Shown here: one piece after another, positions 29,425-55,058 of the stretch
Position numbering within the stretch: position 1 is the stretch's first letter
Layout: every line of letters begins with the position of its first letter
IMG/VR virus record: IMGVR_UViG_3300045988_183245
Length of the DNA stretch: 64,000 nucleotides
Source of the DNA: a virus
Strand: one strand, 5' to 3'
Position numbers and translations under genes: made by a program
The notes under the pieces: generated by a model
Told to the model about the DNA's origin: nothing
Seen by the model: the letters and a program-made list of their open reading frames with translations, nothing else
Database searches by the model: none

Positions 29425-29445
29425 TTGTTGAAAGGAGAAGAATTC

Positions 29446-30606
29446 ATGAAAATCAAAAACAAGTTTTTACGGAGTACAGCGGCAATCATCGCTACGCTCC
29501 TAGCACTCAGCTTCACCGGCTGCGGTCAGAATCCGATAATATCGGAAAGTCCATCCAGCACCGGGGTCGTCTCAGAAAGCACTGCAAGCAGTGAACAGAC
29601 GGCTGGCGGTTCGGTGGACGGCAGCTTTACCATTCACTTTATAGACGTAGGGCAGGCGGATTCCGCCCTTATCACCTGCGACGGCCACTCAATGCTTATT
29701 GATGGCGGTAATGTCGATGATTCTAACCTCTTATATTCTGTTATGCAGCGTGAAACCGATGGGCACCTGGATTATGCCGTTGGGACTCACGCGCACGAAG
29801 ACCACATCGGCGGCTTGTCCGGTGCTTTTGAGGCCGTCACTGCGAACATGACTCTATGCCCTGTGACAGAATACGACAGCAAAGCATTTCGGGACTTTGC
29901 AAGCTACGCGGAGCAAAAAGGCGGAGGCATCACGATACCGGATGTGGGTGAAACCTACACTCTGGGGGAAGCGGAATTCACGATAGTTGGTGTTAATTCT
30001 GTTCCCGGTGACACGAACAATACTTCGATTGTTTTGCGTATTGTCTATGGAGACACCTCGTTCCTCTTTACCGGAGATGCGGAACAGGAAGCGGAAAACG
30101 TGATACTTGCATCGGGACAAGACATTCAGTCAACAGTTCTGAAAGTAGGGCACCATGGCTCAAGTACATCTACCTCAGAGGCTTTTCTGGATGCGGTAAA
30201 TCCAACATATGCTGTGATTTCTTGTGGCACAGGGAACAGTTACGGTCATCCACATCAGGAAACACTCGACAAGTTGCAAAACAAAGGTGTCGAGGTTTAT
30301 CGCACAGACCTGCTGGGTGATATTTACTGCACCTCGGATGGCAAAGAGGTAAGTTTCACTTCCGGTGAATATCATGATGAAAATCGGATTGAAGCCGGTA
30401 GTGCTGCAGATTCCAAGGATGAACAGGACAAAGCTTCACTTGTCATAGACGAGACATACGTTCTGAACACGAGCACTATGAAGTTTCACAAACCCGATTG
30501 CTCTGCAGTCGAATCGATGAGTCAAAAGAATCGAATCGACTATATGGGGCCCCGCGATGAGCTCATCCAGGAAGGGTATTCGGCGTGTGGGATTTGCAAA
30601 CCTTAA
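29446..30606 (+). CDS. MBL-fold metallo-hydrolase lipoprotein (ComEC/Rec2-type beta-lactamase domain) with a C-terminal Cys motif
   Basis: Lipobox LALSFTGC; HFIDVGQADSALI...DGG...GTHAHEDHIGG resembles a metallo-beta-lactamase HxHxDH. The C-terminus has HKPDC...CGIC. Confidence 0.6.
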   Translation: MKIKNKFLRSTAAIIATLLALSFTGCGQNPIISESPSSTGVVSESTASSEQTAGGSVDGSFTIHFIDVGQADSALITCDGHSMLIDGGNVDDSNLLYSVMQRETDGHLDYAVGTHAHEDHIGGLSGAFEAVTANMTLCPVTEYDSKAFRDFASYAEQKGGGITIPDVGETYTLGEAEFTIVGVNSVPGDTNNTSIVLRIVYGDTSFLFTGDAEQEAENVILASGQDIQSTVLKVGHHGSSTSTSEAFLDAVNPTYAVISCGTGNSYGHPHQETLDKLQNKGVEVYRTDLLGDIYCTSDGKEVSFTSGEYHDENRIEAGSAADSKDEQDKASLVIDETYVLNTSTMKFHKPDCSAVESMSQKNRIDYMGPRDELIQEGYSACGICKP

Positions 30607-31742: not shown

Positions 31743-32345
31743 TTACGCGGCAGGTCTCTTAATAAGCTGCATCCACTGATGGTCACCTGCTATGCGGCCT
31801 TCCGTCTTCTCGATGATAAGGAGCGGGTCATAAAAAGGAACGCCCATATCACGCAGAATTTCCTTGATACCGGCCCGGCTCGCAGGAAGGCAACGGTCTT
31901 GCAGGAAAATCTCGAAATCTTTCCACGAAGGTTCTTCCACCACACCAAATGCGCGAAGAGGAATTTTATCTGTATAGTTTTTGATTTTGATTTTTTCGTG
32001 GCGGAAATCAACATCAATCGTAGTACAGAGCTGCTGCCTGTTCATGTAGTTGATACGCAGAGTATAATTCGGGTCGTCACTGAAATGCTGAGCTTTGTCG
32101 AGATACTTGTATATCGTCTGGCGGGAAACTTCGTATTTATCCGCGATAGCAGCTGCACTAAAACCGGAATTATGCAGCTCCACAATATCGACTATCTGGT
32201 CTTCAGATAAACAAGATTTCCTTCCCGCATTGCGTGGATTTTTTTGAGTGCATGGCACACTTTTGAGCTGTGCAGCATACTGGCGCAGCTGATTAAGGTC
32301 GGTGGTGCCAAAGATGTCTCTGATTTGCTCTTGATAAATATCCAT
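31743..32345 (-). CDS. HTH (resolvase/Hin-type) domain protein upstream of the HipA-like kinase
   Basis: QIVDIVELHNSGFSAAAIADKYEVSRQTIYKYL HTH. It is co-oriented with the kinase with a 12-nt gap. Confidence 0.5.
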   Translation of the reverse strand: MDIYQEQIRDIFGTTDLNQLRQYAAQLKSVPCTQKNPRNAGRKSCLSEDQIVDIVELHNSGFSAAAIADKYEVSRQTIYKYLDKAQHFSDDPNYTLRINYMNRQQLCTTIDVDFRHEKIKIKNYTDKIPLRAFGVVEEPSWKDFEIFLQDRCLPASRAGIKEILRDMGVPFYDPLLIIEKTEGRIAGDHQWMQLIKRPAA

Positions 32346-32639
32346 TGCAATACAACCCTCCTTTCACTCTAACTATACCAACACAGCACCAAATTGTCAA
32401 TAAATTAAATTGCAGACAAAGTCGCAAGCTCTGTCTGACCATTTTGTTTTTGCGGTTCAAATCCCAAATCATAGTTGCGTGCTTGTGCGAACCGACTACA
32501 ATAAAAATTGTACGATAGATAACATTCTATATCGAAAGGGTTTTATGCCTTTCGTACATTCACAATTTCGCTTAAAGGGCGGACTTCCTGTTTTTAGGGA
32601 GCCCGCCCTTTTTGTATGAACAAGAAGGAGCGTAATGCA

Positions 32640-34844: not shown

Positions 34845-34869
34845 ACCATATCACAAAATCCGCGCCAAG

Positions 34870-37035
34870 GAAACCCACTGCGTGAGCGGTGGGAGGAATT
34901 GGCGCATGAGTTTTCAAGAATGATGAATGTGTACAATCTGTAAATAAGAAAGCTACTTGATTTCTTTTTGCATCAAAAAATATTATAATACCGATATAAT
35001 CAATCAAAGAAAGGAGGGCTATTATGGCTTTCGGAAACAAGAATAGCACGCCATCGTTTGCGTTGACTCTTTCCATGAAGGTCAGCAAACAGGATGAAAT
35101 TTTTCTTTCAAAAAAGTTTCGCATCGGATGTACGGTTTACAACCAAATGGTTACGAAAACCACAAAAATGTGGCATCAGCTGCGCAAAACACGTGAATAT
35201 AAAAACCTTATAAAAGCCATAAAAGTCGCTCCCGCCAACAGAGATGAACGGAAAGCACTTTTGGTGCAGCGTTCCAATCTGATTAAGCAAGCGGGCTTTT
35301 CTGAGGGTGCGTTCCACAAGTTGGTTGTGCCCTACCAGAAAGCGTACAACGTAAATTGCGATGTCGCTCAAAAAGTTGCGTCCGCCGTCTGGAAAGCGTG
35401 GGATGACTTCTTTTATGGAAAAGGAAAGACCGTACACTATAAAAAGTTGGACGATTTTGTGACCCTTTCCGGAAAGAAAAACAACAGCGGTATATTCTTT
35501 CGCCCGGCAAACCATACGGTGAGTTCGATGGAATCCGCTAAGCGAAAAGCGAAAAACTCTATCGAGAAAAAATACTTCGATGCGTACAGAAAACCCGACG
35601 CTAAAAAAGACGAAGAAGTAGTTCTTCCCGATGAAGTAAAAGCGCAAATGGACAAAGAGGTTGCCGATGCCACGGCGAAAATCAAACCGTATATCGGAGA
35701 AGGTAATCTGCGTATCATTTACGAGAAACACGAATTCCTTGTCAAAGTGCGCAACCCCGATACTCAAACTGGATGGTATCAACAGGAAGCGCTCAAATGC
35801 GGTGTGAAGTATTGCCGGATTGTTCGCTCATGGGTCGGCACCAAATGGAAGTATTACGCTCAACTTGTTTTGGAAGGCTATCCGCCCATCAAATGCGACA
35901 GTAACGGGGTCATAAAACACCCTGTTAAGCAGGGCCGCATTGGTATAGATATCGGCACACAGACTATCACGTTTTGCGGTAAAGATGTTTGCGACCTTCG
36001 TGTACTTGCACCGTCTGCCATAGCGGAAGCTCGCAATGGTCTTACCAAGGAAATCGCTCGCATTATGCGGCAAATGGACCGTTCGCGCCGTGCGATGAAT
36101 CCGCAATACTTTAACAAAAACGGAACCATCAAACGGCTAAAACGCAAGAACGGATATAAGCAAATTCGTCATTGGAACTATAGCAAAAACTATTATCGGC
36201 TGCTGTACAGGCTGCGGAATTTGAACCGCAAGCTTGCTGCCGTACGCAAGGCGGAGCATTATATTCTCGCCAACGAATTGCTGACATACGGCAACGAATT
36301 CGTAGTTGAAGATATGAACTACAAAGCCTTGCAGAAGCGCAGCAAGAAAACGAAAACCAACCCCAAAACCGGTAGAGCGCATTCCAAAAAGCGGTTTGGC
36401 AAATCTATAGGACGCTGCGCTCCAGCTTTGTTTATCACCATTTTGGGGCAAAAAGCAAGTCGTTGCGGAGGCAGTGTTATCAAGGTCAGTACCTTTGAAA
36501 CAAAAGCTTCGCAGTTTGACCATACCGACGATAGTTTTACCAAGAAAAAATTGTCCCAGCGTTTTGCTAAACTTTCTGACGGAACCGTTGTCCAAAGAGA
36601 TTTGTATTCCGCATTCCTTTTATTACATCTTAGGAAGAACCTTCAATCCTATAACAAGAAAACCATTAAAAAAGATTTCCCGCAGTTTAAGATGCTGCAC
36701 GACAAAACAAAAGAACGCTTGCAAAACAGCCACGAGTGGCTGCCTTGTAGCGTTGGCTTCTAAAGCACCTATAATTTAAGGGGGTTCGACGTAGCCCCAT
36801 TGATTGCCTTGAAGTGCCGCTTTCAGTAGCACTTGATAGGTGAAACCCTTGTCAAGGGGATATCTACACTTTTTATGCTGGCTCTTCGGGCATTTTGCCC
36901 TGCCTTTAAGCTTCGCTTTGGGTAGTAAGTACACTGGTCTATCGAAAGATAGTGTATCTGGCAGCTTTACGCTGTTGGAAAACCCTGTAACTGCATTGCG
37001 TCAGCATAGAATCCCACTCCGTGAGGGGTGGGAGT
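34870..37035 (+). mobile_element. IS200/IS605-family tnpB-only element
   Basis: Flanking hairpins cccactgcgtgagcggtggg (34874-34893) and cccactccgtgaggggtggg (37013-37032); the internal tnpB-like gene is intact. Confidence 0.6.
35024..36763 (+). CDS. tnpB: TnpB-like RuvC-fold protein lacking the canonical zinc finger (579 aa)
   Basis: GIDIGTQT (RuvC-I), VEDMNYKAL (RuvC-II), and QRDLYSAFLL in place of DRDvNAAiNI. No CxxC...CxxC. It is the intact paralog of the frameshifted copy at 9405-11151. Confidence 0.65.
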   Translation: MAFGNKNSTPSFALTLSMKVSKQDEIFLSKKFRIGCTVYNQMVTKTTKMWHQLRKTREYKNLIKAIKVAPANRDERKALLVQRSNLIKQAGFSEGAFHKLVVPYQKAYNVNCDVAQKVASAVWKAWDDFFYGKGKTVHYKKLDDFVTLSGKKNNSGIFFRPANHTVSSMESAKRKAKNSIEKKYFDAYRKPDAKKDEEVVLPDEVKAQMDKEVADATAKIKPYIGEGNLRIIYEKHEFLVKVRNPDTQTGWYQQEALKCGVKYCRIVRSWVGTKWKYYAQLVLEGYPPIKCDSNGVIKHPVKQGRIGIDIGTQTITFCGKDVCDLRVLAPSAIAEARNGLTKEIARIMRQMDRSRRAMNPQYFNKNGTIKRLKRKNGYKQIRHWNYSKNYYRLLYRLRNLNRKLAAVRKAEHYILANELLTYGNEFVVEDMNYKALQKRSKKTKTNPKTGRAHSKKRFGKSIGRCAPALFITILGQKASRCGGSVIKVSTFETKASQFDHTDDSFTKKKLSQRFAKLSDGTVVQRDLYSAFLLLHLRKNLQSYNKKTIKKDFPQFKMLHDKTKERLQNSHEWLPCSVGF

Positions 37036-39577: not shown

Positions 39578-39614
39578 AAGACCACTGCCCCAAAAAGGGT
39601 GGTGGTCTTATTTT
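39578..39614 (+). terminator. rho-independent terminator
   Basis: gaccac...ggtggtc followed by a T9 run. Confidence 0.55.
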
Positions 39615-39794
39615 TTTGCACAATACTTACCATAAATTACCAGAAAGAAAAACATTGTGCATCTGTGCGAATTGCATATAATACAAAATATAGAACGAAA
39701 GGCATCAAAAAACATCGTTGGTCGGGCAAAATCCGACCGAAAGGCTAGGGCGGGCTCAGTTTTGAACCTGCTCTTTCTTTTTATCGGAGGCTTT

Positions 39795-40322
39795 ATGTCA
39801 AACAAAGAAGAACGCATGAACCGCAATAAAAGCATCATCGAAGATTACAAAAATGGAAAGCCGATTTTAGAAATCGCGAGGGAATATAATCTTTCAGAAA
39901 CGATGTGCTACAAGATTCTAAAAGGTACGCAGGAGCCGCCTCGTTATTTTGAAAAAAAGAGGAAGAGACTTACCACTCGAAATGAGCAAATTGTTAAACA
40001 GTATAAAGGCGGTATGACGGCCAGAGAATTGGGCAAGATGTACGGCATTTCCATGCAGCGTATTTATGCAATCTTGCATTCGAGCGGAGAGTACGAAAGC
40101 CAAAAATACAATCATATTGAAACGGCTCTCAAAAAAGAGAAAAAGATGCGGAACCAAACTTTTCTTGATGCTTACAAGAAAAATCCTCGAAAATCGATTA
40201 TCGAGTTGAGCAGGGAGGTAAATATCAGCCCTTCACTAGGTTACCTTATCCTTCATCAAAATGGGATTTACCAGTATAACGTAAAAGCCAGAGCTAAGGA
40301 GAATAGCGAAAATGCCGATTAA
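39795..40322 (+). CDS. tandem-HTH repeat protein (three units)
   Basis: RBS ggagg; repeated motif Y..G....EL...Y.(I/L)S...(I/C)Y.IL. Confidence 0.6.
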   Translation: MSNKEERMNRNKSIIEDYKNGKPILEIAREYNLSETMCYKILKGTQEPPRYFEKKRKRLTTRNEQIVKQYKGGMTARELGKMYGISMQRIYAILHSSGEYESQKYNHIETALKKEKKMRNQTFLDAYKKNPRKSIIELSREVNISPSLGYLILHQNGIYQYNVKARAKENSENAD

Positions 40323-40830
40323 CAAGATTACCCACGTGTGTCTAACTCATGACAAAGTCAGAGCACGAAATGAAAAGATGCTGGAGGATGCCAAGAACGG
40401 TATGTCCCAGGAACAGCTGGCCGAAAAGTATCAAATTTGTGTTTCTACTGTCCGATATAGTCTGAAGGACTTTTACAAAGAACAGGCCCGGCAGAGGAAA
40501 GCAAAGAAGAAAGCCTGGCAAACCCAGATGATTCATGAATATGAGATGGGCGCAAAATCTCCGGAGCTCCAGGAAAAATACGGCATCAGTGGAACGCTCT
40601 TTTATCGGATTCTTCATACGCACGGAAAGAATGGCCGACAAATCCACAGCCAAAACCGTATCGAGACTGGCAAGAAAAGAAACGCCGAGATGGTCAGGAA
40701 ATACAAAAACGGCGTTTCTGTCAAAGAGCTTGCGGAAGAATACGGGCTCAAAAAGGGAAGCGTATATCGCGCCATGAAGCGGTATAGTCCAGGCCCAGGG
40801 AAAAGTAAAAGTTGTCAAAGTGAGGAATAA
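40312..40830 (+). CDS. tandem-HTH repeat protein (three units)
   Basis: Same repeat family; overlaps the previous gene by 11 nt. Confidence 0.6.
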   Translation: MPINKITHVCLTHDKVRARNEKMLEDAKNGMSQEQLAEKYQICVSTVRYSLKDFYKEQARQRKAKKKAWQTQMIHEYEMGAKSPELQEKYGISGTLFYRILHTHGKNGRQIHSQNRIETGKKRNAEMVRKYKNGVSVKELAEEYGLKKGSVYRAMKRYSPGPGKSKSCQSEE

Positions 40831-40834
40831 TTGC

Positions 40835-41788
40835 ATGGCTGCATCAAAGAAAGATGTTGCGAAGCAGCAGGTCAAAGAAGACCGCGAAAAGGTTCGGGAA
40901 ATGTATCTTTCTGGCAAAACTGTCAAGGAAATCGCCAAGGAAACGTATTTTTCAAGCTCTTATTGCTATGCCATGGTGAGAGACCTAGCAAAAGAAAAGA
41001 ATCTTGCAAAGAAAGCAAAAAGAGCACCTCTCGACGAAGCTATGATTCAAGATGCGAAAGCCGGGATGACGGTTGCTGAAATCGCAAAGAAGCATGGCGT
41101 GACCTATCAGCAGTGCTACTATACTGTTTCTGAATACGCTCAAGCTACGATTAAGAAGAACAAGAAAAAGCAGTCTGCTGCCACGAAAGTTCGCAATGCG
41201 GCTATGTTGGAAGATGCGAAAGCCGGAATGACTGATAAGGAAATCGCCAAAAAATACTTTTTGTCTCGAAGCAGTGTCCGTACCGTCCTTGCAGGGCATT
41301 TACATACAAATTCCAAAAAGTTGGATGAAAGGCGCAAGGCAATTCTTGCGGATTATGAGGCAGGAACGTCCTCAAAAGACATCTGTGAGAAATACGGTAT
41401 TTCAAAATCCACTCTTTACAAGGACATGCGCCAAATTGGAAAAACCTGTCAGGAATACTATCACAAGGCGCTGAAAGACAAGACCAATCAAAGGAATTCC
41501 GATATTCGAAGCAAAATCGAAAGAGGGGTCTCGGTCAGCACTATTGCCAAAGAATACGGAATCTCTAAAACGGCGATTTATGAAACGTTTCATCAGGAAA
41601 ATGTCAGAGCTGGAATTTTACAGAAACGCGGCCGTCCGCGAAAAAACACGGAACGTAATGCACTGATTGCTAAACGCCACAGGGAAGGCGAGAAGGTGCA
41701 GGCGCTTGCCACTGAATATAATCTCTCTGTTTCGACGGTAAACACTATTTGCAGTAGAAACAAAAATCAGAATATTGCATCACATTAA
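40835..41788 (+). CDS. tandem-HTH repeat protein (six units)
   Basis: Six copies of the A.AGMT..EIAKK(Y/H)G.S...(V/Y)Y repeat; RBS gaggaataa. Confidence 0.6.
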   Translation: MAASKKDVAKQQVKEDREKVREMYLSGKTVKEIAKETYFSSSYCYAMVRDLAKEKNLAKKAKRAPLDEAMIQDAKAGMTVAEIAKKHGVTYQQCYYTVSEYAQATIKKNKKKQSAATKVRNAAMLEDAKAGMTDKEIAKKYFLSRSSVRTVLAGHLHTNSKKLDERRKAILADYEAGTSSKDICEKYGISKSTLYKDMRQIGKTCQEYYHKALKDKTNQRNSDIRSKIERGVSVSTIAKEYGISKTAIYETFHQENVRAGILQKRGRPRKNTERNALIAKRHREGEKVQALATEYNLSVSTVNTICSRNKNQNIASH

Positions 41789-41834
41789 CAGGCTGCCATT
41801 TGGCGGCCTTTTCTTTTTTGGAGGAAATAATAAC

Positions 41835-42749
41835 ATGACAGACGACGTACGAAATCTGATTCGATTTGTAGTGGATGGCGATATTCGAAACGCGCAGACT
41901 CAGTGCCGAATCATGCTTGAAAAGAATGTACCCGAAAAGGACGCCAGGTTCAAAGAAAACGAACTCAGAAAGTTGAATCTTCTGAAGCCGGAACTGATTC
42001 AGCTGCCCACCAACCTGGAAAACCTCTTGATTGCGGAGGATGCCACGAATTTCCCTGAGAGCCGGTTCCTGCTCCGCGAGGAGGAAGAAACAGTCATCAA
42101 CAAGCTCTTGGCCACCAGAAAAGCAGCTTTAGCCATCAAGGAGCTTGGCATCCACTATACTTGCTCTTTGCTTTTGACGGGCCTTCCTGGTGTTGGTAAG
42201 ACTGAATTGGCCCGCTACATTGCACACAAGGCGAATTTACCGTTTGTTTTCCTGAAATTCTCTGGCCTTGTCAATTCTGCTCTTGGCCGGACACAGCAGA
42301 ACATCGGCAGAGTGTTCGATTACGCAAAGCGCACGCCTTGTGTTCTTTGTGTTGATGAAATTGATGCCATCGGAATGTGCCGTGGCAGCCGCGATGATGT
42401 CGCTGAAATGAGCCGTGTCACCATCGCATTGATGCAGGAACTTGACCGGCTCCCGAATGACGTCATTCTCATTGGCACTACAAACCGCGTCGATAACCTT
42501 GACGAAGCCCTCATTCGCCGATTCACTTTCAAACACCGCGTCAAACCTTTAGGCGACGATGACATGAAAGAACTGTGCAAGAAGTTCCTTGCTTCGGCAG
42601 ACTATCCCTTCACGGAATCCGAACTCGACGAACTCTGCCATTCGCTGCGTGAGCAGCGGACTGCCAGCGCCGTTGTCAATGCCTGTACAGAACGTATCGT
42701 TGCACATATCGTATCGCAGCTGCCTGAAAATTCGGCAGATGCCGTGTAA
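41835..42749 (+). CDS. classical AAA+ ATPase
   Basis: Walker A LLTGLPGVGKTELAR, Walker B VLCVDEIDAIG, and sensor-1/SRH GTTNRVDNLDEALIRRF. Confidence 0.7.
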   Translation: MTDDVRNLIRFVVDGDIRNAQTQCRIMLEKNVPEKDARFKENELRKLNLLKPELIQLPTNLENLLIAEDATNFPESRFLLREEEETVINKLLATRKAALAIKELGIHYTCSLLLTGLPGVGKTELARYIAHKANLPFVFLKFSGLVNSALGRTQQNIGRVFDYAKRTPCVLCVDEIDAIGMCRGSRDDVAEMSRVTIALMQELDRLPNDVILIGTTNRVDNLDEALIRRFTFKHRVKPLGDDDMKELCKKFLASADYPFTESELDELCHSLREQRTASAVVNACTERIVAHIVSQLPENSADAV

Positions 42750-43452: not shown

Positions 43453-43639
43453 ATTTTCCGCTAACAATCGACAAAAAATCACATTTCAGTTCAGCGGAAG
43501 AGTATAATTGTAGTAGAAAGAGAGGAAAAAAGCATGAACCAAATCAACGTTGTCACGATTGGGAAACTCATTGAAGCGCATCGTGGAGGTGACGAGCAGA
43601 AGTTCAAAACTCACGTCGATTTTATAAAAACAAGCCGGG

Positions 43640-45018
43640 AAAACCCACGACTTTAGTCGTGGGATGAAAGGCGTTAAGAACGAATCAATTCACGCTGCAT
43701 ATCCGCAAGATGGACAGCATTTTTTTGCTGTCAAAGCGTGCGAATTGCGTACCATAGATAGTAGATTCTAAAGAAAAGGAGGCTACTACTCATGCGTCTG
43801 GTTGTTAAAACTTACAAGTATAAGCTGTACAACAGTAAAAAGAACAGATACCTGGTGCGCCAGATTGAACTTGCCTCCGAGATTTGGAATTTTTGCATTG
43901 CTATGCGGCGTATGTACTATTTGGTCTATGGCAAAACGCTTAAAGCCAATGATTTGAAAAAGTACATTGCTAAAATCTGCAAGCGCCGCAAGTGGGCACA
44001 TTGACATAATCTCGGCAGCCAGGCGATTCAGGATGTGGTGGAACGGGTTGACCGTGCCTATAAAGCCTATTTCGATAATAAGAAAAAGGAGCATCCCAAA
44101 AAGAAGTCCCTACCAAAATTCAAGAAGCGTGAACTGTACAAAAGTTTTACACTCAAGCAAGCAGGCTACAAGTTTGAAGGAAAAGGCCGCATTACCATCA
44201 ATGGCAAAAGGTATCGGTATTTTGATTCTCGGCCATTGAAAGGTAAAGTGAAAACCTTAACCGTCAAGCGCGACAATTTGGGCGACATCTATATTTTTGC
44301 CGTCACGCAGGAAGAATACAATGAAGTCCTTCCACGAGCAGGTAAAGCTGTCGGGATGGATTTCGGCTTAAAGCATTTCCTCAACCTGGATGACGGCAGT
44401 GTGATAGATTCTCCTCAATGGTATAAAGCCTCCCTGAAAGAGCTGAAGACCATACAACGTCACATTTCACGCTGCAAAGCAGGCAGTAATAATCGCAAGA
44501 AAGCTATCAAGGAGTTAAACCGCATCTATCGAAAGATGTGTAATCAACGCACCGACTGGTTCTTCAAGACTGCCTATCAGCTGATTGGAGATTATGCCAT
44601 CATCTGCATTGAAGACTTAAATCTTGCGGGGATGCAAAAACTCTGGGGACGCAAAATCAACGATATTGCGTTCGGTGAGTTTGTTCAAATTCTCGAGTGG
44701 GCGGCATCCAACTGCGGCACAGAGATTGTGAAAATCGACCGCTTTGCGCCATCCAGCAAGTGCTGCAGCCGCTGTGGGTATATCTATACGAAGCTCACGC
44801 TCAAGCAGCGTGAATGGGATTGCCCTTCCTGCGGCACACACCATGAGAGAGACGTCAATGCAGCTATCAATATATGCCGCATGGGATTAGTCCAAATGGG
44901 CTACCCTGCGTAAAAATACTCTCACGGATGGGGCACCATGCCGTTACCGAGAGGCGTAAGACTGGGTCAGCCAGCGGCCTCGTTGAAGTAGAATCCCACG
45001 ATTTTAATCGTGGGAGTG
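43640..45018 (+). mobile_element. IS200/IS605-family tnpB-only element with an inactivated tnpB
   Basis: Perfect palindrome cccacgactttagtcgtggg at 43644-43663 and cccacgattttaatcgtggg at 44995-45014, bracketing the tnpB. Confidence 0.65.
43792..44913 (+). pseudogene. tnpB: tnpB interrupted by an in-frame TGA (70-aa and 292-aa ORFs share one frame)
   Basis: Both ORFs are in frame 1 and are separated only by TGA at 44002-44004. The C-terminus has GMDFGLK, ICIEDLN, CSRCGY...CPSCG and ERDVNAAINI. Confidence 0.7.
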
Positions 45019-47430: not shown

Positions 47431-47638
47431 TCAAGGTTTTCCTTTCCCCAATCTTGGTCGCATGGCTTCATTTGAGCTGACACAGGTGAAGCGTGAAAAT
47501 CATCCGTTTCATAGTAATATCCTTCCTTTCTTTGGCGCGGGTAACTCCGCGCCAGCCGTCCAAGCAAACAGCCTCCACGCGGCGGACGGTGGGCAACAGA
47601 TGTTTCCGTGTTCCGGGCATCTGGCTAATGTTTGTATT

Positions 47639-47714
47639 TGCTGGTTTAGCTCAGCTGGTAGAGCAACTGACCTGTAATCAGTCGGTCATCGGTTCAAGTC
47701 CGATTTCCAGCTCC
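47639..47714 (+). tRNA. tRNA, anticodon loop CCTGTAA (putative TGT / Thr); atypical
   Basis: Cloverleaf with D-arm gctcagctggtagagc and T-arm atcgg-ttcaagt-ccgat, CCA encoded. There are two U-U mismatches at the base of the acceptor stem, and C33. Confidence 0.5.
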
Positions 47715-48540
47715 AGACGCTATCCGTTGGATGTATCGAAATCACATGATACGATGCTATACACAACATCTGGCGGACAGCATGCCACCCATTAAGGCGG
47801 CCTCCTCGTGGCGGGTGGCGGACAGCGGCTCTTGCGGCTGCTGACGAATGTCTTAGAAGCATGCAAACGTACGAGCATCCCCGTCAAGTCGGGGCGCATC
47901 CAGACGCGACACAGCCGTAAAGGCGAGATTGCTGCACGGCAACTGGTAAGTTTCGCCGCAGTCTCACACACAGCCCAACGACAACCGTTAACCCGATTTG
48001 ACAGGGAATCAACGACAGGGCTCAAAATTTGAAGTTGACCAACACCCAAGCGCTTTCTTGGATTCTCGCGTATCGTCAACGATGAGGTTCGCAAGATTGT
48101 CAGGTGGTGTGAAGATGACATCCGGGGATGACGACCTACTAAACGGATGTCATGGCGGGGCTAAGTGAGGGTTCACCCGCAATCTTATGCAGGTATCGTA
48201 TAACGGCTAATACTCCGCCCCTCCAAGGCGGAGACGCGGGCTCGACCCCCGCTACTTGCTCCACACGTCGCCGCCACCGTACGCCACGACATTAAATTTG
48301 GCGAGCATGGTCCACATGTGGTCCGCTGTCCGAATGCCAATGGACAGCCTATAAAAGAATAGGCAAACAGGTGCTGTGCCTGAGAGTATCCGAGAGTCCC
48401 GGTGTCAGTCGCGAATGAGGCCGGAAAACGGCGGGGAGGGTACTATACAGAATCCGTCGGCGTGGCTGCTGAATGGTACTGGAAGAAAGGGTTGGCTGCC
48501 CTGATTGCGGGATGATAACCAGTATAAAACATCCTAACAT

Positions 48541-48616
48541 GCCTGATTAGCTCAGTTGGTAGAGCAGCGCATTCGTAACGCGCAGGTCGGCAGTTCGAAC
48601 CTGCCATCAAGCCCCA
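48541..48616 (+). tRNA. tRNA-Thr (CGT)
   Basis: Acceptor gcctgat / atcaagc, D-arm gctcagttggtagagc, anticodon loop ttCGTaa, T-arm ggcag-ttcgaac-ctgcc, CCA encoded. Confidence 0.6.
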
Positions 48617-48654
48617 TCACCAAATTAAGCGATAATAGGAAGGAGATGAATTCT

Positions 48655-49038
48655 ATGGAACAGGCAATTATCAATGTTGAAGGTACGACTACCATAGAAA
48701 CCGCTGCAGCAGCCAAAAAGCTGATTGGGATGCTTGGCAATCAGAACGTCCGCGCCATCTCGGTCAATCGTGTGAACGATAAGAGCGATGAGGTCATTGT
48801 CGAACTTGATTTCGTGCCTGGCTTGGCACCGCATCTGCACGGCTTTACACTTCAGGTTAATGGCTTGACCTGTGGTTATGCTGGTACTGGTCCTTCCAAT
48901 CTGTATGAAGTCCTGCAGGCGGCTGGCGTGAGTGAAGCTCAGGTAGCACGCGAGGACATCACTCAGAAGAGCACAAAAACCATTCCTCTGCGCCTGGAAC
49001 GCGCCGTGACTCAGTACGGCGACTTCCAATTTGCGTAA
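48655..49038 (+). CDS. hypothetical protein (127 aa)
   Basis: RBS aggaagga upstream of MEQAIINVEG. The longer ORF would overlap the tRNA. A hairpin ggcgggcttaacccgcc follows the stop. Confidence 0.5.
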   Translation: MEQAIINVEGTTTIETAAAAKKLIGMLGNQNVRAISVNRVNDKSDEVIVELDFVPGLAPHLHGFTLQVNGLTCGYAGTGPSNLYEVLQAAGVSEAQVAREDITQKSTKTIPLRLERAVTQYGDFQFA

Positions 49039-49068
49039 CGCTATTTGGCGGGCTTAACCCGCCATCAT

Positions 49069-49144
49069 GGAGGGATAGCTTAGCTGGATAAAGCACCTGC
49101 CGCAAAGCAGGGTATCGATGGTTCGAGGCCATCTCCCTTCTCCA
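49069..49144 (+). tRNA. tRNA-like gene with an aberrant anticodon arm (possible pseudo-tRNA)
   Basis: Acceptor, D and T arms are good (ggaggga / tcccttc; gatgg-ttcgagg-ccatc; CCA). The anticodon arm only pairs as cctgc-cgcaaa-gcagg, giving a 6-nt loop. Confidence 0.35.
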
Positions 49145-49506
49145 TCCAGACACCCTTTCGCTTCCTTCCGCCAAAGGTATCTGGGGTATTGTACTGCATT
49201 GCGTGTAGTACGGCCAATCAGGCGCGGAACTCCGAAACCATACCACGAAGAATTTTATCCTCTCCGCGCAGCATGGACATGCGATTTTACGGGGATAAAT
49301 TCAAACCGAAATTGTGTCGAGTGGCGAAGACGGTTGCGGCACTGGCGAAGCACATATCTGCTTCGTCAACCATCCATGAGAAAGCCTCCACGCGGCGGAT
49401 GGTGGGCAACGCAGCAAAGCTGCGGCTGATTTCTCCTTAAATCGGTATCTGAATAAATGCAGATAGATAATCACAAAAAAATTAAAAGAACAAAGGAGTA
49501 CACAGC

Positions 49507-50640
49507 ATGAGCAATCAGAAAATCATGAAAGCAATCGCAGGGATTGCAGCAGCCGGTATGATGGCAACTTGTCTGCCTGTCGCAGCGTTCGCAGCCACCG
49601 GTGACACCTACCATTTCTCTTTCAGCAATGGTTCTTCCCAGGACCTGGCTCCGGGCGGTTCTATGACGTTCCCGGCAAGTCAGTATGACTACGGCTACTG
49701 GATTACCCTGCAAGGCCATGGCGGGTATACCTACAACTACTATCCCGGCGACACTCTGCCGTACGATGCAGTTGACCAGTGGTTCACCACTGACGGCATC
49801 ACTTCCTGCTATGCGGCTGAGGGCAATCCGCGTTCCATCACCATCAACTACCAGATTGACGGCAACACGGTGCTGACCGAGACTGACACCGCCACTTTCC
49901 CGGGCAGTGTTGATGGTCAGAGTGTTGAAGCCTGGACCACGGATTCCGGTGATACTTACACCGCATCCAGCAAGAGCCTGAACCATGACCGCCTGTTCTA
50001 CTACCTGGGCGACGACATCCACGACAACGTCCTGACCCTGAAAGCCACTTCTGCATCCACTCCCGACGACGGCAAGGATGACAACAAGGGCGATGACAAG
50101 GGTGATGTTACCAAACCCGACGATAAGGACGACAACACTGGTGACAATACCGGTGACAACGGCACCACCACTCCTGATGACAAGGGCGACGTTGTGGCTC
50201 CTGATAAGGGCAACACCGGCAAAGACAACACTTCTACCGGCTCCAATAAGGGTAACGGTACTACCACCACTACTCCGACCGCTCCTCGCAAAAACGTTGA
50301 GGTTTCTGAACATGGTGAAATTGCCGCCGCTATTGCCAATGGCACCTGGGGCAATGAGTACACCGTCTGTACCAGCTGTGGCTATCACAACTGGACCCGC
50401 AAGGGTAACGTTTACGTCTGTGACCATTGTGGTCATGAAGTCCTGACTGTTAAGGGCGCTGATGGCGTCAAGGGCTATGCTGGTACTCTGGCTGGCAACG
50501 AGCCCCAGTACGCTTCTACCTCTGAAGCTCAGGCTGCTGCTGAAAAGCGTGAAGCCGCTTATGCCGCTTCCATCGCTGCTCTGCAGGCACAGGTTGCCGC
50601 TCGTGAAGCTGCTTATGCCGCTTCCCTGGGCATCCACTAA
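49507..50640 (+). CDS. secreted Thr/Asp/Gly-rich repeat protein with a C-terminal zinc-ribbon-like CxxC..CxxC
   Basis: Signal peptide MKAIAGIAAAGMMATCLPVAAFAA; repeats D(D)KG(D/N)..; CTSCGYHNW...CDHCGHE. The antisense 388-aa ORF is rejected. Confidence 0.6.
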   Translation: MSNQKIMKAIAGIAAAGMMATCLPVAAFAATGDTYHFSFSNGSSQDLAPGGSMTFPASQYDYGYWITLQGHGGYTYNYYPGDTLPYDAVDQWFTTDGITSCYAAEGNPRSITINYQIDGNTVLTETDTATFPGSVDGQSVEAWTTDSGDTYTASSKSLNHDRLFYYLGDDIHDNVLTLKATSASTPDDGKDDNKGDDKGDVTKPDDKDDNTGDNTGDNGTTTPDDKGDVVAPDKGNTGKDNTSTGSNKGNGTTTTTPTAPRKNVEVSEHGEIAAAIANGTWGNEYTVCTSCGYHNWTRKGNVYVCDHCGHEVLTVKGADGVKGYAGTLAGNEPQYASTSEAQAAAEKREAAYAASIAALQAQVAAREAAYAASLGIH

Positions 50641-50723
50641 TTTGCCATCCTCTAACTAACGGTAATCGATAGTTTTTTCTCCTTGCTGTGGGGCGGGATT
50701 TCGGTCCCGCCCCATCCTTTTGT

Positions 50724-50811
50724 GGTCAGATGTCCGAGTGGTTTAAGGAACTGGTCTTGAAAACCAGCGACGCCGCAAACGTCCGTGGGTTCAAATCCCA
50801 CTCTGACCGCC
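50724..50811 (+). tRNA. tRNA-Ser (TGA)
   Basis: Class II tRNA: acceptor ggtcaga / tctgacc, anticodon loop ctTGAaa, long variable arm, T-arm gtggg-ttcaaat-cccac, CCA encoded. A terminator gccggggtttcccggcTTTTT follows. Confidence 0.7.
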
Positions 50812-51199
50812 AAATTTTTGCCGGGGTTTCCCGGCTTTTTGTTTTTGTGAGCAACACAAGGCAACAGATTGCTATATCGAATAGGGTTATGTATACAACT
50901 GGAGCGTCAAAAGGAAAAGCACGAGGACTCCCGTTCTGGAAACAACGAATGGTTCTGCTGAAATCAAGGTGCCAATCGACCTGGCTTTGGCTGACTATGA
51001 GTCCAGGATGGCTGAGCCTTTAAGCGAGTTGTGTTCGTGTGAGGACATACCGTTCTCGAATGCAATAGCGCGGATTGCTGCTTGGAGACCGGTCAAACAA
51101 TGAGTGCGGGCCTGCCATTATTTTTACGAAAAGCCTTGACTTTGACTTTTACATATTGTATAATTAAGACGCTGAATTTGATGAAAGGAAAATTGCACG

Positions 51200-51301
51200 A
51201 TGTTTGCTGCTATGATGAACAAACAGAATAAATTGCAAAAGCTGTGGAGCAATTGGAATCTCTTCGGCTGTTTTTGTGTTGTCTGTTTGTGCAAATCATA
51301 G
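51200..51301 (+). CDS. possible small Cys-rich hydrophobic peptide (33 aa)
   Basis: MFAAMMNKQNKLQKLWSNWNLFGCFCVVCLCKS. It lies downstream of a strong sigma-A-like promoter TTGACT-17-TATAAT (about 51140-51170) and an RBS aaagga. Confidence 0.3.
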   Translation: MFAAMMNKQNKLQKLWSNWNLFGCFCVVCLCKS

Positions 51302-51469
51302 TACAGTGATGGTTGAATAAAATCAGCCAAGTATCGGTTGTTTTCCGCACTCTGCACGATATGAGCACCTGTCAGACACACAACGCCTGATGGGTGCTTT
51401 TTTGATGCAGAAAATCAGAATCAGGTCACTCTAATGCCGCTGGAGTGAATTCCAGCCAGGCTTATTAAA

Positions 51470-51850
51470 GTGTATGCTATTATACAGAATGTATATTCGA
51501 GGATTCGCCAAACGGTAAGGCATCAGGCTTTGACAAACGAAACAGAACAATCGCTAAAAGAGTCTCTGCAGCAGACCGCCGAAACCATAAAAATCAATAT
51601 TGTAGAAATGGAATGCATGCCTGACCATATTCACCTGTTGGTGGAGTGTTCACCGCAGCATTTTATCCCGGATATGATAAAAGTGCTTAAAGGCAACAGT
51701 GCAAGAGCTATTTTTATCGCCAATCCGGACTTGAAGAAGCAACTTTTGGGCGGGCATCTTTGGAACCCAAGCTACTTTATTGCAACCGCCAGTGATAACA
51801 CGCGCAAACAAGTACAAGAATACATTGCATCTCAAAAAATAAGAAACTGA
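51470..51850 (+). pseudogene. tnpA: tnpA (IS200-type Y1 transposase), N-terminally truncated (GTG start; the first beta-strand is missing)
   Basis: Has the HUH motif MPDHIHLLV and WNPSYFIATAS, but no upstream in-frame sequence for the conserved N-terminal strand (a stop lies 5 codons upstream). Confidence 0.55.
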
Positions 51851-51868
51851 TGAAATGGGGGCTTCGCA

Positions 51869-53200
51869 GTGGAAATCACTTCCAGCTATGCTGTGGAAAT
51901 CAAAAAGCAGAAAATGTTCGACAATACTATAAAGATTTATCGCGAAGCCGTTTCTTTCTTGATTGGTTGTTTTAACAAAGAATGGGATTCTATTCAAAAA
52001 GTAGAGGGTGCCAAATCTCGAAAGAGTTTTGCCGAGAAGTTAATTCATACTACAAAATACAGCACTGCTAAATATGATTTCGATGCCAAGTTTTATAAGT
52101 TCCCTAGTTACCTGCGCAGAGCGGCTATTCAAGCAGCACTCGGCTCTGTAAGCAGCTACTACAGTAGCCATAAGAACTGGGAAGCAAACGGCAAGGTTGA
52201 CAGGGAGCCAAAACTTCAATGCGATAGATTTTGCTTCCCGGCTTTTTATAAGACCGTTATGTATGAGGAAAGCAACAAACCAAACCAGTGCTATCTGAAG
52301 CTGTATAAAAACAATGACTGGGTTTGGATTCCTATTGCAATGCGTGCCACCGATGTCAAATACATCACGAAATACTGGTCACATTGCGAAAAGAGTGCTC
52401 CCTCCCTCGAAAAGAAGTATGGAAAATATTTTCTTCGCTTCGCTTTCGTGGAGAAGGTAGAACTCTCTGAAACTGAAATTCAAGACAGGCGTATCTGCGC
52501 TGTAGACCTTGGCCTCAATACTGACGCCGTGTGCAGCATCATGACTGCCGATGGAACTGTCCTTGCAAGAAAATTTATCAATTTTGCAAGTGAAAAAGAC
52601 CATCTGTATCATGTGCTCAACCGTATTAAGCGTAAGCAAAGAGAACATGGACCTAAGAGTGCTGCTGCTATGTGGCGTTACGCCAAAGCCTTGAATAACG
52701 ATATAGCGAAAAAGGTTGCTGCTGCGATTACTGAATTTGCTGTGCTTTATTCTGTAGATGTGATTGTTTTTGAACATTTGTCATTTACAGGCAAAAAGCA
52801 CGGTGGCAGTAAGGCACAGAAGCTGTCGATGTGGAAGCGTAATTCTATACAGGATTATGTGGAACACAAGGCGCACCGCTGCGGTATCCGGATTTCGCGT
52901 ATCTGTGCTTGGGGGACAAGCAAACTCGCCTTTGATGGCAGTGGTGCTCTCAAGCGTGATGAAACCAATCGTGCCCTTGCAACGTTTGCAAGCGGCAAAC
53001 AATACAACTGCGACCTAAGTGCGAGCTACAATATTGGCGCTCGCTACTTTGTCAGAGAGTTGCTAAAACCCTTGCCAGCGATGGTAAGGTCTCAGCTTTC
53101 GGCTAATGTTCCGGATGTTGAGCGTAGAATCCAAGTTACACTTGCCACGCTTAAAGTTCTGTATCCTGAGCTTAAAAAACTCAGTACACAGGCAGCGTAA
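51869..53200 (+). CDS. tnpB: TnpB-like RuvC-fold protein with a degenerate zinc finger (443 aa)
   Basis: AVDLGLNT (RuvC-I), VIVFEHL (RuvC-II), WGTSK...CDLSASYNIGARYF (RuvC-III analogue). There is no CxxC pair. Confidence 0.6.
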   Translation: MEITSSYAVEIKKQKMFDNTIKIYREAVSFLIGCFNKEWDSIQKVEGAKSRKSFAEKLIHTTKYSTAKYDFDAKFYKFPSYLRRAAIQAALGSVSSYYSSHKNWEANGKVDREPKLQCDRFCFPAFYKTVMYEESNKPNQCYLKLYKNNDWVWIPIAMRATDVKYITKYWSHCEKSAPSLEKKYGKYFLRFAFVEKVELSETEIQDRRICAVDLGLNTDAVCSIMTADGTVLARKFINFASEKDHLYHVLNRIKRKQREHGPKSAAAMWRYAKALNNDIAKKVAAAITEFAVLYSVDVIVFEHLSFTGKKHGGSKAQKLSMWKRNSIQDYVEHKAHRCGIRISRICAWGTSKLAFDGSGALKRDETNRALATFASGKQYNCDLSASYNIGARYFVRELLKPLPAMVRSQLSANVPDVERRIQVTLATLKVLYPELKKLSTQAA

Positions 53201-53464
53201 GATGTAGGCTAACTGTGACAATTAGCTTTCTTGCGGTGAGTTTGTTCTTCGGGACTTGCTTGCTGAGGGATTGCTGTACCATTTCGTTAGCAAGTTCCTC
53301 TCCTTAAAAGAAGGGAAGCCCGCGACTTTAGTCGTGGGAGGATTCACCCTGACAACGGTTGTTCGACTCGACCATTCTCGACCAACGCTCACTTTCATGC
53401 GCATCGGAAGTGAGATTCCTCAAAGCTGTGTTCCCATAAGCAAGGCACGGAAGATGCGCGACAA

Positions 53465-53541
53465 GTGCTCGTAACTCAATCGGTAGAGTACCCGACTTTT
53501 AATCGGGGTGTTCGGGATTCGATTTCCCGCGAGCGCACCAT
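53465..53541 (+). tRNA. tRNA-Lys (TTT)
   Basis: Anticodon arm cccga-ctTTTaa-tcggg, T-arm cggga-ttcgatt-tcccg, CCA encoded. Confidence 0.7.
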
Positions 53542-53571
53542 GCCCGGCAGAGCATTATCTGCCACTTTTGT

Positions 53572-53647
53572 GGGTGTATAGCTCAGTAGGCAGAGCGGCG
53601 GACCGTTAATCCGTTTGTCGCAGGTTCAAATCCTGCTACGCCCGCCA
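53572..53647 (+). tRNA. tRNA-Asn (GTT)
   Basis: Anticodon loop ccGTTaa, D-arm gctcagtaggcagagc, CCA encoded. Confidence 0.7.
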
Positions 53648-53650
53648 TAA

Positions 53651-53728
53651 GCTCCTCTGGTGAAATTGGCAGACACAGTGCGCTCAAACCGCACCGTTTT
53701 GAGGGTTCGAATCCCTCGGGGAGTACCA
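53651..53728 (+). tRNA. atypical tRNA, anticodon CAA (Leu-like D-arm but short variable arm)
   Basis: D-arm tggtgaaattggcagacac resembles tRNA-Leu; anticodon arm gtgcg-ctCAAac-cgcac. The variable region is only about 6 nt, and there is no class II extra arm. Confidence 0.45.
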
Positions 53729-53757
53729 TGTCCGACAGTACAACAACTGCCATTTAT

Positions 53758-53833
53758 GGGTTGTTAGCTCAGCTGGTAGAGCAACGGACCGTTAATCCGT
53801 GGGCCGCAGGTTCGAATCCTGCACAACCTGCCA
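53758..53833 (+). tRNA. tRNA-Asn (GTT), second copy
   Basis: gctcagctggtagagc D-arm, loop ccGTTaa, CCA encoded. Confidence 0.7.
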
Positions 53834-53836
53834 TAT

Positions 53837-53911
53837 GCTCCAGTGGCGAAACTGGCAAACGCGGCGGATTTAAGCTCCGCTTATTTCTGAGTTCGACTCT
53901 CAGCTGGAGCA
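53837..53911 (+). tRNA. atypical tRNA, anticodon TAA (Leu-like, short variable arm, no encoded CCA)
   Basis: Acceptor gctccag / ctggagc, anticodon arm gcgga-ttTAAgc-tccgc, T-arm ctgag-ttcgact-ctcag. The variable region is about 6 nt. Confidence 0.45.
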
Positions 53912-53918
53912 TCCATAT

Positions 53919-53984
53919 AGGGGTGTAGCTCAATTGGTAGAGCAGCGGTCTCCAAAACCGCTTGTTGCATGTTCGAGTCGTGTT
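53919..53984 (+). tRNA. tRNA-Trp (CCA)
   Basis: Anticodon arm gcggt-ctCCAaa-accgc, D-arm gctcaattggtagagc, CCA encoded. A terminator agccgtcc...gggcggcTTTTTT follows at 54009-54042. Confidence 0.65.
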
Positions 53985-54581: not shown

Positions 54582-54610
54582 ACCCTCGCCGCAGGATTGC
54601 GGCTTTATAT

Positions 54611-54690: not shown

Positions 54691-54693
54691 TCT

Positions 54694-54770: not shown

Positions 54771-54772
54771 AT

Positions 54773-54857: not shown

Positions 54858-54860
54858 TAA

Positions 54861-54934: not shown

Positions 54935-54965
54935 TACAAGCACCTATGTCAAAAAGGTGCATCAT

Positions 54966-55055: not shown

Positions 55056-55058
55056 TCT

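Follow-up and report, generated by a model that had tools for sequence, protein, structure and literature searches.

Tandem helix-turn-helix units fill the proteins of a tricistronic operon in an uncultured gut jumbo phage: predicted DNA-binding proteins and candidate transcription regulators

Among the DNA-binding modules of prokaryotes the helix-turn-helix (HTH) is the most familiar, and it usually occurs as one unit per chain that is paired through dimerisation. In the uncultured gut jumbo phage analyzed here, one operon encodes 12 HTH units, with three to six units on each chain. The question raised by this locus is what such proteins are and what they do for the phage. The whole stretch of DNA that was analyzed, 64 kb in length, is called the window, and features lie on the plus strand unless marked (-). 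Three adjacent plus-strand open reading frames had been proposed by a sequence-only reading and were found in place: gene A at 39795-40322 (175 aa, pI 9.7), gene B at 40312-40830 (172 aa, pI 9.8) and gene C at 40835-41788 (317 aa, pI 9.8). A and B overlap by 11 nt, and a Shine-Dalgarno sequence precedes each of the three genes. The upstream transcription unit ends in an intrinsic terminator with a 13-bp stem and a T-run (39578-39609). A stereotyped promoter follows, and a second intrinsic terminator (41790-41809) ends the operon 2 nt past the stop codon of C. Based on this order of terminator, promoter, three ribosome-binding sites and terminator, A-B-C is a tricistronic operon with terminators on both sides. 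An AAA ATPase gene (41835-42749) comes after the second terminator.

The repeats were located with a unit HMM. Two, three and six strong units were detected in A, B and C, together with a degenerate third unit in A, and the counts of 3, 3 and 6 in the sequence-only reading were thereby borne out. In A the units lie at 39831-39926 and 39987-40082, with the degenerate A3 at approximately 40158-40259. Those of B lie at 40375-40470, 40525-40620 and 40687-40782. Units C1 to C6 lie at 40889-40984, 41039-41134, 41201-41296, 41339-41434, 41504-41596 and 41663-41758. The strong units reached i-E values of 1e-13 to 1e-16 each, with C5 at 2e-5. This HMM is circular, as its training set was the clear units of these same proteins, and independent support was obtained from Pfam. 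C matched HTH_23 (E 7.8e-28, five stretches), HTH_28 (7e-26) and HTH_7 (3e-25). B matched HTH_28 (3e-14), as did A (5e-11), and HTH_24 covered A3 (residues 124-147). The matches to HTH_23, HTH_28, HTH_7 and Mor all exceeded the gathering cut-offs. Profile searches had been named as the check on whether the repeats are HTH units; HTH_23 and HTH_7 matched, as did Sigma70_r4 and r4_2, and the HTH nature of the repeats was confirmed. Further Pfam matches were to HTH_psq and CENP-B_N.

The repeat had been described as approximately 45 aa long. The spacing is in fact 46-57 aa (mean ~52), made up of a core of 32-41 aa and a basic linker. The consensus of the unit is RN-x2-I-x3-Y-x2-G-x-S/T-x3-I/L-A-x2-Y-x-I/L-S-x4-Y, and the identity from unit to unit is just 20-46%. 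The linkers between the modules are flexible, with a high content of Lys and Arg. KRGRPRK, located in the linker ahead of unit C6 (C residues 264-270, 41624-41644), is taken to be an AT-hook or Hin-type minor-groove arm (GRPR in Hin, RGRP in AT-hooks). Helix 1 is preceded by this arm and by the conserved RN, and a similar arrangement stands ahead of the HTH of Mu Mor. The net charge is +14 for A, +17 for B and +30 for C. Structure prediction, a further check that had been proposed, gave an AF2 model with six 3-helix modules, linkers at pLDDT <50 and a pTM of 0.25. The units are independent tri-helical HTH modules, similar to the C-terminal part of Mor and to homeodomains, that are strung covalently in each chain. 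We define as "poly-HTH" a protein with at least three tandem units of ~50 aa carrying the signature RN..I...Y..G.S...LA..Y.LS....Y, with basic linkers and no other domain. A, B and C qualify, as does a paralog, D.

Mor (PF08765) was matched by A, B, C and D with 39.0, 30.4, 41.9 and 48.2 bits (gathering score 24.9), D being the best Mor match of the window. These alignments span only profile positions ~54-102 of 107, and no stretch of the chains aligned in Pfam with the N-terminal half of the profile (~1-50), the dimerisation domain. PHROG 836/532, "late transcriptional activator", was matched with 1e-12 to 6e-22. Other PHROG matches were to HTH arrays of HNH/homing endonuclease families and of transposases (phrog_59, 8446, 7168, 151). 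Several candidate identities were set aside. A sigma factor was rejected because region 2 is lacking; neither Sigma70_r2 nor Sigma70_r3 was among the Pfam matches listed (the full list for A and D, the best 25 families for B and C). A recombinase was rejected for want of a catalytic domain, as there were HTH_7 matches only and the chains are filled by HTH units. A NUMOD-type homing endonuclease was unsupported, with no such Pfam match listed. The top PDB profile match, the "CAP repeat" 8VD6, comes from a paper on de novo protein design by sequence-space diffusion and was disregarded as uninformative about the biology.

Both paralogs named in the sequence-only reading are real, as the unit HMM finds repeats in each. 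Paralog D (14890-15357) has three units, at 14908-15003, ~15058-15135 (degenerate) and 15217-15312. Its start is uncertain and is either TTG 14890 or ATG 14914. The in-frame TTG is a plausible true start, since the ATG cuts helix 1 of the first unit. Paralog E (55134-55505 (-), 123 aa) has HTH_7 as its best Pfam match and two weaker, more distant units by the unit HMM (55392-55487 and 55278-55343, both (-)). A 200-aa protein at 31743-32345 (-) with an HTH_7 match has a single unit (32094-32189) and is not basic (pI 6.9); it is a distant relative and not a repeat protein. A, B and C together with D, and more distantly E, thus appear from their sequences to form a paralogous phage family of poly-HTH proteins with predicted DNA binding.

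The recurrent promoter motif that had been noted earlier is real. Fourteen copies of this 34-bp class were found in the window, all on the plus strand, compared to none in 20 shuffles. The copy for A-B-C (39652-39685) consists of TTGTGC, a spacer with GTGCGAATTGC, and TATAAT. Among the 68 related loci in which the start of A could be placed, 66 have the exact pattern ahead of A, and in the remaining two the -35 hexamer carries a single-base difference. A second copy serves paralog D (14800-14833), so two poly-HTH transcription units (A-B-C and D) sit behind the motif. Further copies precede a flotillin/SPFH gene (6888-6921; gene 7012-8655), a PLD-nuclease-like gene (12212-12245; gene 12586-14751), cas8c and cas7 (19145-19178), two TnpB-like genes (22247-22280, gene 22431-23540; 43725-43758, gene 44035-44913) and a tail-lysozyme-like gene (61780-61813; gene 62013-62840). 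The others lie at 6721-6754, 8775-8808, 16011-16044, 32472-32505, 58932-58965 and 56319-56352, the last being the weakest match of the set. The idea of a "dedicated regulatory family" acting on this motif went further than the data, which give co-expression with the promoter class only. Tandem DNA repeats of a suitable period, as possible targets, were not found in the 64-kb window.

Conservation was analyzed in one shallow phage lineage (at least ~90% nucleotide identity). The 3/3/6 unit pattern, with A3 below threshold, was kept in 66 of 72 loci, and dN/dS, calculated from one sequence pair, was 0.24 for A and 0.20 for C. Based on these values, A, B and C are real genes under purifying selection. 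At a dN/dS of 0.2, constraint is about sixfold looser than in the adjacent AAA ATPase (0.035), which was counted against a role as regulators. Natural variants had five rather than six units, or a 6-unit A::C fusion in place of 12 units. Units C2 and C3 carry a direct DNA repeat pair of 53 nt that is 79% identical (41039-41091 and 41201-41253), and recombination between these repeats gives the 162-nt in-register deletion of the 5-unit variants. Units are gained and lost through in-register recombination. Precise operator recognition suits such variants no better than a dosage-type or low-specificity mode of binding.

Relatives with up to ~23 units per chain make up at least 894 sequence clusters; P0112, for example, has 12 units and P0109 ~23. 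The family had been called poorly characterised, and indeed the relatives are named only "HTH domain-containing protein" or "Mor family transcriptional regulator"; a literature search on tandem, multi- or poly-HTH proteins in phages found nothing relevant. In a preprint, ORF141 of Staphylococcus phage PhiStaph1N matches 2LVS (HHpred), and a nonsense mutation in this ORF coincided with enhanced infectivity of the evolved phage. In three other, unrelated contigs, poly-HTH genes adjoin Mor-like or sigma-like genes. One has a sigma-like gene, Mor, poly-HTH and then a holin; in another, a second HTH-repeat gene and then a Sigma70_r4 gene come after poly-HTH; in the third, the gene after poly-HTH encodes a 95-aa protein that matches Mor faintly. 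The context of the distant relative P0129 does not seem phage-like, which was counted against the regulator reading. A PAX match was observed in relative P0139. Megablast of 10 kb against phage records gave no match, and megablast of 25 kb against plasmid records gave only tRNA-sized matches. No match to C was found by tblastn in 50,697 phage records, the neighbouring 477-aa protein had nothing but distant hypothetical proteins as tblastn matches, and GTDB genome scans revealed no relative and no prophage copy.

Taken together, A, B and C are most likely phage transcription regulators. For the fuller proposal, that the poly-HTH paralogs are tandem-HTH DNA-binding proteins that bind extended sites and act as temporal regulators of phage transcription, we see a slightly better than even chance. 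Successive recognition helices of one chain would enter successive major grooves, and the basic linkers and the GRPR arm would follow the minor groove, as in Cbp1/Cbp2, Pax, Myb and Tc3. On this model the site would measure ~30 bp for a 3-unit protein and ~60 bp for a 6-unit protein. Least certain is the regulatory step itself, in which the proteins may act as Mor/C-like activators or repressors; possible targets are their own 34-bp promoter class or the next promoter class. The main alternative has the chains coat DNA. As histone-like or nucleoid-associated proteins of low specificity, they would coat or compact DNA by many weak HTH contacts and basic linkers. Instead of reading specific operators, they could serve to organise the phage genome or shield it, or else to silence the nucleoid of the host. 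The strong basicity (pI 9.8, 20% Lys+Arg, charge up to +30), the disordered basic linkers with the AT-hook-like KRGRPRK, the plastic unit number, the ~23 units per chain of some relatives and the relaxed dN/dS are all in favor of it. However, the recognition helices diverge strongly between units and yet each unit is kept among orthologues, and this, like the Mor-like and sigma-like neighbours in other phage contigs, speaks against coating. We consider coating unlikely on balance. The same divergent-yet-kept pattern has been described for the repeats of Cbp1/Cbp2, where the repeats have distinct roles.

The remaining explanations were given less weight. It is doubtful that poly-HTH proteins form a modular phage DNA-reading system that runs a temporal switch on the 34-bp promoters. 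In such a system each Mor-type unit of ~50 aa would specify a few base pairs and arrays of 3 to >20 units would recognise long composite sites, similar to zinc-finger or TALE arrays; in-register unit deletions and inter-gene fusions would be a quick way of re-programming specificity. Likewise improbable are mimics of sigma region 4, which would bind RNA polymerase (beta-flap), anti-sigma or other host proteins without binding DNA, and so redirect or block host transcription. Instead, chains so positively charged, with basic linkers and a GRPR/AT-hook arm, suggest nucleic acid as the partner, sigma region 4 is itself a DNA binder, and regions 2 and 3 were not among the Pfam matches listed. CRISPR-repeat binders of the Cbp1/Cbp2 type, serving the type I-C-like Cas genes of the phage, would agree with the presence of cas8c and cas7 in the window (19516-21959) and with Cbp2 (2LVS) as the best natural PDB sequence match (E 0.0048 with C alone, 1.3e-12 with the unit profile). 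We regard this as very improbable. The likeness may be one of generic tandem HTH, and the same PDB list continues after 2LVS with generic HTH proteins (IS21 transposase, LuxR, SinR). Moreover, no CRISPR array was found in the 64-kb window, the cas genes lie ~18 kb away in a separate transcription unit, and no Cas-annotated genes were present on the four contigs examined with distant poly-HTH relatives. An equally slim chance is left to DNA-binding modules of homing endonucleases or transposases that were domesticated or are decaying after loss of the catalytic domain. The PHROG matches and the RRXRR/HNH and TnpB genes carried by the phage are in line with such an origin. In contrast, the chains have no nuclease or transposase domain and no room for one, they hold a constant position in 66 of 72 genomes, a promoter and a terminator of their own flank the genes, purifying selection acts on them, and no catalytic domain was among the matches listed (best 25 families each) for seven long relatives.

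The significance of the family depends on which explanation holds. None of the at least 894 clusters is characterised. If long composite sites are read, poly-HTH proteins would be the prokaryotic equivalent of Myb, Pax or zinc-finger arrays and would offer a way into the gene regulation of uncultured gut jumbo phages. If DNA is merely coated, the nucleoid-associated proteins of phages would gain a new class.

Among known systems, the Mor family shares with A-D the C-terminal HTH, and it activates middle or late promoters of phages from a binding site that covers the -35 region or lies immediately upstream. Mor and C of phage Mu (PF08765; PDB 1RR7, 9L0X) work as dimers; each has ~130-140 aa, a single HTH and a dimerisation domain at the N-terminus. 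In contrast, the chains of A, B and C have three to six covalently linked units and lack a dimerisation domain, a lack that was counted against a Mor/C-like regulator. Sigma-70 region 4, LuxR/GerE and the resolvase HTH_7 have the fold of the poly-HTH units; they match in Pfam, and single units superpose closely. Poly-HTH proteins repeat the HTH alone, without sigma region 2/3, receiver domain or recombinase catalytic domain. Myb R1R2R3, the Pax paired domain, the bipartite domain of Tc3/Sleeping Beauty and the four Psq repeats of Pipsqueak are tandem tri-helical HTH as well; neighbouring major grooves are read by their modules, and the linker lies in the minor groove. Tc3 (1u78) and the PAI subdomain of Sleeping Beauty were among the Foldseek and HMM matches. 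This is an architectural analogy, with similarity at HTH-clan level only, to proteins of 2-4 units in eukaryotic contexts. In the archaeal proteins Cbp1 and Cbp2, two or three imperfect HTH repeats stand in tandem without touching one another, joined by basic flexible linkers, and the repeats are better conserved between orthologues than within one protein; Cbp2, which binds DNA, has two such domains and one basic linker. The poly-HTH proteins follow this plan of imperfect HTH repeats in tandem with basic linkers. Cbp1 and Cbp2 are encoded by single-copy chromosomal genes of crenarchaea and bind CRISPR repeats, whereas the poly-HTH proteins of the window belong to a bacterial jumbo phage, carry up to six units per chain and are encoded by three adjacent genes and their paralogs.

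Three adjacent plus-strand genes, A (39795-40322, 175 aa), B (40312-40830, 172 aa) and C (40835-41788, 317 aa), were found as open reading frames where the sequence-only reading had placed them. It had assigned them 3, 3 and 6 helix-turn-helix (HTH) repeats, and these numbers were recovered with our own unit HMM, which detected six units in C, three in B and two strong plus one degenerate unit in A. This HMM was built from the clear units of the same proteins and is circular as a test of the units; Pfam served as the independent test of repeat identity. C matched HTH_23 (E 7.8e-28, five stretches), HTH_28 (E 7e-26) and HTH_7 (E 3e-25), while HTH_28 matched B (E 3e-14) and A (E 5e-11) and the degenerate unit A3 was covered by HTH_24. 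The repeat length of about 45 aa had been set too short, as the units are spaced 46-57 aa from start to start. Pairwise identity among units was 20-46%. All three genes stop at TAA; thus stop-codon recoding would leave their boundaries unchanged.

The best specific match of the unit was the C-terminal HTH of the Mor family (PF08765). A, B, C and the paralog D scored above gathering against this profile, aligning to positions ~54-102 of 107, and PHROG families named 'late transcriptional activator' matched at 1e-12 to 6e-22. Alignment of the units gave the consensus RN-x2-I-x3-Y-x2-G-x4-E-I/L-A-x2-Y-x2-S-x4-Y-x2-L, which we take to be the HTH signature of Mu Mor. In an AlphaFold2 model (mean pLDDT 73.5, pTM 0.25), C folded into six modules of three helices each, with intervening linkers at pLDDT below 50, a predicted beads-on-a-string architecture. 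The profile searches thus did not show the repeats to be anything other than DNA-binding HTH units, and the HTH interpretation is supported. The proteins are very basic (pI 9.7-9.8; net charges +14, +17 and +30 for A, B and C), and Lys and Arg are abundant in their inter-unit linkers. The linker ahead of unit C6 contains KRGRPRK, presumably an AT-hook or Hin-type minor-groove arm.

The transcription unit upstream of A ends in an intrinsic terminator (39578-39609), a promoter follows at 39652-39685 (+), each gene is preceded by a Shine-Dalgarno sequence, and a second terminator (41790-41809) begins 2 nt past the TAA of C, ahead of an AAA ATPase gene. A-B-C is therefore a discrete tricistronic operon. 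Its 5' leader of ~110 nt (39686-39794) carries a hairpin, GGTCGGGCAAAATCCGACC, at 39720-39738, and TTACCA is directly repeated at a distance of 10 bp (39627-39642) immediately 5' of the -35 hexamer; the hairpin and the repeats are both candidate regulatory sites. The promoter is a copy of a 34-bp element, TTGC/T-N6-7-GTGCGAATTGC-N1-2-TAnAAT-like, which looks like a sigma70-type promoter whose spacer, possibly an operator, is unusually conserved. The recurrent motif claimed earlier was borne out by 14 copies in the window, all on the plus strand and upstream of genes, against 0 copies in 20 shuffles. Another copy drives D, and others precede accessory-looking genes (flotillin, PLD nuclease, cas8c/cas7, two TnpB genes, lysozyme). 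The further paralogs D (14914-15357, +) and E (55134-55505, -) were found by unit HMM and Pfam to have three and two units, respectively. The annotated ATG of D truncates helix 1 of its first unit, which an in-frame TTG at 14890 would make whole. One related HTH unit was also present in a 200-aa protein (31743-32345, -). That these proteins are a dedicated regulatory family linked to this motif is a reasonable hypothesis.

The 3/3/6 pattern was present in 66 of 72 related loci, scored as 2, 3, 6 in the locus scan where A3 fell below threshold. The promoter upstream of A was exactly conserved in 66 of the 68 loci with a locatable A start; the other two had a one-base change in the -35 hexamer. 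Relative to the most divergent complete locus (L059), dN/dS was 0.24 for A, 0.20 for C and 0.035 for the adjacent AAA ATPase. A and C are constrained, but loosely. Length variants were in-register unit events. A 5-unit C arose by a 162-nt deletion between 53-nt repeats (79% identical) in units C2 and C3, seen in several assemblies that differ in sample and source, and one C variant was without unit C4. In two assemblies (runs ERR12541594 and ERR12541595, samples possibly related), a 321-aa fusion protein, in which A units 1-2 run into C units 3-6, replaced A, B and C between unchanged flanking genes. These variants show that unit number is plastic and that there is at least partial redundancy among the 12 units. 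Past the AAA ATPase gene (window beyond 42750; 11900-19500 in loci L001-L006) lies a strain-variable segment: some strains have RRXRR/HNH endonuclease genes inserted there, and in others a pair of genes, AAA_5/MoxR-like and VWA (CoxE), is either present or displaced.

Proteins of tandem HTH units (poly-HTH proteins) form a large, uncharacterised family. When 1.84 billion cluster representatives were scanned in full with HMMER, 894 proteins passed E<=1e-3, of which 117 passed E<=1e-10, and most of the top 150 were also poly-HTH, typically with 4-8 units. One relative had 12 regular units of ~50 aa, another (1557 aa) ~23. For seven long members, no catalytic domain was among the Pfam matches listed (best 25 families per protein). 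No names were found beyond 'HTH domain-containing protein' and, from JGI, 'Mor family transcriptional regulator'. Gene neighbourhoods were compared for four distant members. The first has a holin on one side and, on the other, a sigma-like gene with a bona fide 102-aa Mor; downstream of the next come another HTH-repeat gene and a small gene matching Sigma70_r4; after the third comes a 95-aa protein that matches Mor faintly; and the surroundings of the fourth did not look phage-like. Adjacent poly-HTH genes and Mor-like or sigma-like neighbours thus recur.

The assembly collection lists the exact C protein in 698 blocks, with contigs as long as 293 kb, and the protein is also present on 66 IMG/VR viral contigs. 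No close relative of the element was found among deposited phages or plasmids, and scans of GTDB genomes did not detect it. The window has phage-like content (17 tRNA genes, HDV-like ribozymes, a phage-type lysozyme, PHROG-matching genes), and we regard the element as an uncultured gut jumbo phage. The tRNA genes are on the plus strand in two clusters within 47640-55146; that at 49069-49144 has an odd anticodon loop, 'ca' (ARAGORN). Ribozymes matching RF02682 'HDV-F-prausnitzii' (47555-47635, 47784-47855 and 49369-49436; one above gathering at 50 bits, two below at 41.7 and 34.1 bits) alternate with tRNA genes, the first stopping 5 nt short of tRNA-Thr at 47640. We take this layout to resemble the ribozyme-assisted tRNA processing described for gut phages.

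Three TnpB-like genes were observed (22431-23540, 44035-44913, 51869-53200), two matching OrfB_IS605 and a Cas12f1-like TNB domain and the third only weakly TNB; promoter copies precede two (22247, 43725). A conserved hairpin, (A)AGGAAACCC-ACGAC-TTTAG-GTCGTGGG, occurs in five copies (3454-3490, 34857-34893, 43627-43663, 53302-53338 and 59382-59401 (-)), one just 5' of the 44035 gene and one just 3' of 51869-53200; these could be terminators or IS200/IS605-type end structures. In a second family, CCTCCCACGATTGAAATCGTGGGATTCC (9146-9184, 11672-11710, 55790-55828), two copies are 95% identical despite 46 kb separation. Tandem paralogous genes at 932-2113 and 2216-3280, 84% identical at their 5' ends, share a lipoprotein-like signal peptide (MKKVVSLALS..L..LAAC) encoded there and had no Pfam match. 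Directly 3' of a promoter copy, 7012-8655 encodes a 547-aa SPFH/Band 7 and flotillin-domain protein, unusual cargo for a phage. A metallo-beta-lactamase-fold protein (29425-30606; L001 2643-3803), whose counterpart in related loci faintly matched Anti-Pycsar Apyc1 in the precomputed Pfam list, could be a cyclic-nucleotide-degrading anti-defence enzyme. Type I-C-like cas genes at 19516-21959 encode Cas8c/Csd1 (PF09709, E 1.7e-49) and Cas7 (PF05107, E 3.9e-53) behind a promoter copy at 19145-19178, and a 908-aa UvrD-like helicase lies downstream, beyond a TnpB gene; two further stretches, 18427-19089 and 23694-26420, are close to the cas genes. A CRISPR array, cas1, cas2 or a clear cas3 was not seen in the window.

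The data show the fold and architecture of the proteins, their charge, the operon structure, the constraint and the gene neighbourhood in other phages; DNA binding, the length of the site, the regulatory role and the target are inferred. On balance we lean, by a small degree, towards A-C being DNA-binding regulators in the phage temporal programme, with covalently joined Mor-type HTH units standing in tandem in place of dimerisation. One chain would then read an extended DNA site at ~10 bp per unit, with the linkers in the minor groove, and the poly-HTH proteins would act in temporal transcription, possibly on the stereotyped promoter class itself. This is readily testable in vitro. The plastic unit number and the protein charge favour instead a low-specificity architectural coating of DNA, which we regard as improbable overall. 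Mimicry of sigma region 4, aimed at proteins rather than DNA, seems more doubtful still, and that the units are remnants of mobile-element DNA-binding domains we consider very unlikely.

A Cbp-like role serving the phage's type I-C-like cas genes was given equally little weight. The closest solved natural relative was archaeal Cbp2 (2LVS), which binds CRISPR repeats and was matched by C alone at E 0.005 and by the unit profile at E 1.3e-12. Since generic HTH proteins came next in the same list and the window has no CRISPR array, membership of the Cbp family was not established. According to the Cbp2 paper, Cbp2 has two HTH domains that do not interact, and the basic linker between them is required for high-affinity DNA binding; the paper also describes three such repeats in Cbp1, and structural kinship to Pax and Myb. 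Cbp2 is the best mechanistic analogue of the poly-HTH proteins.
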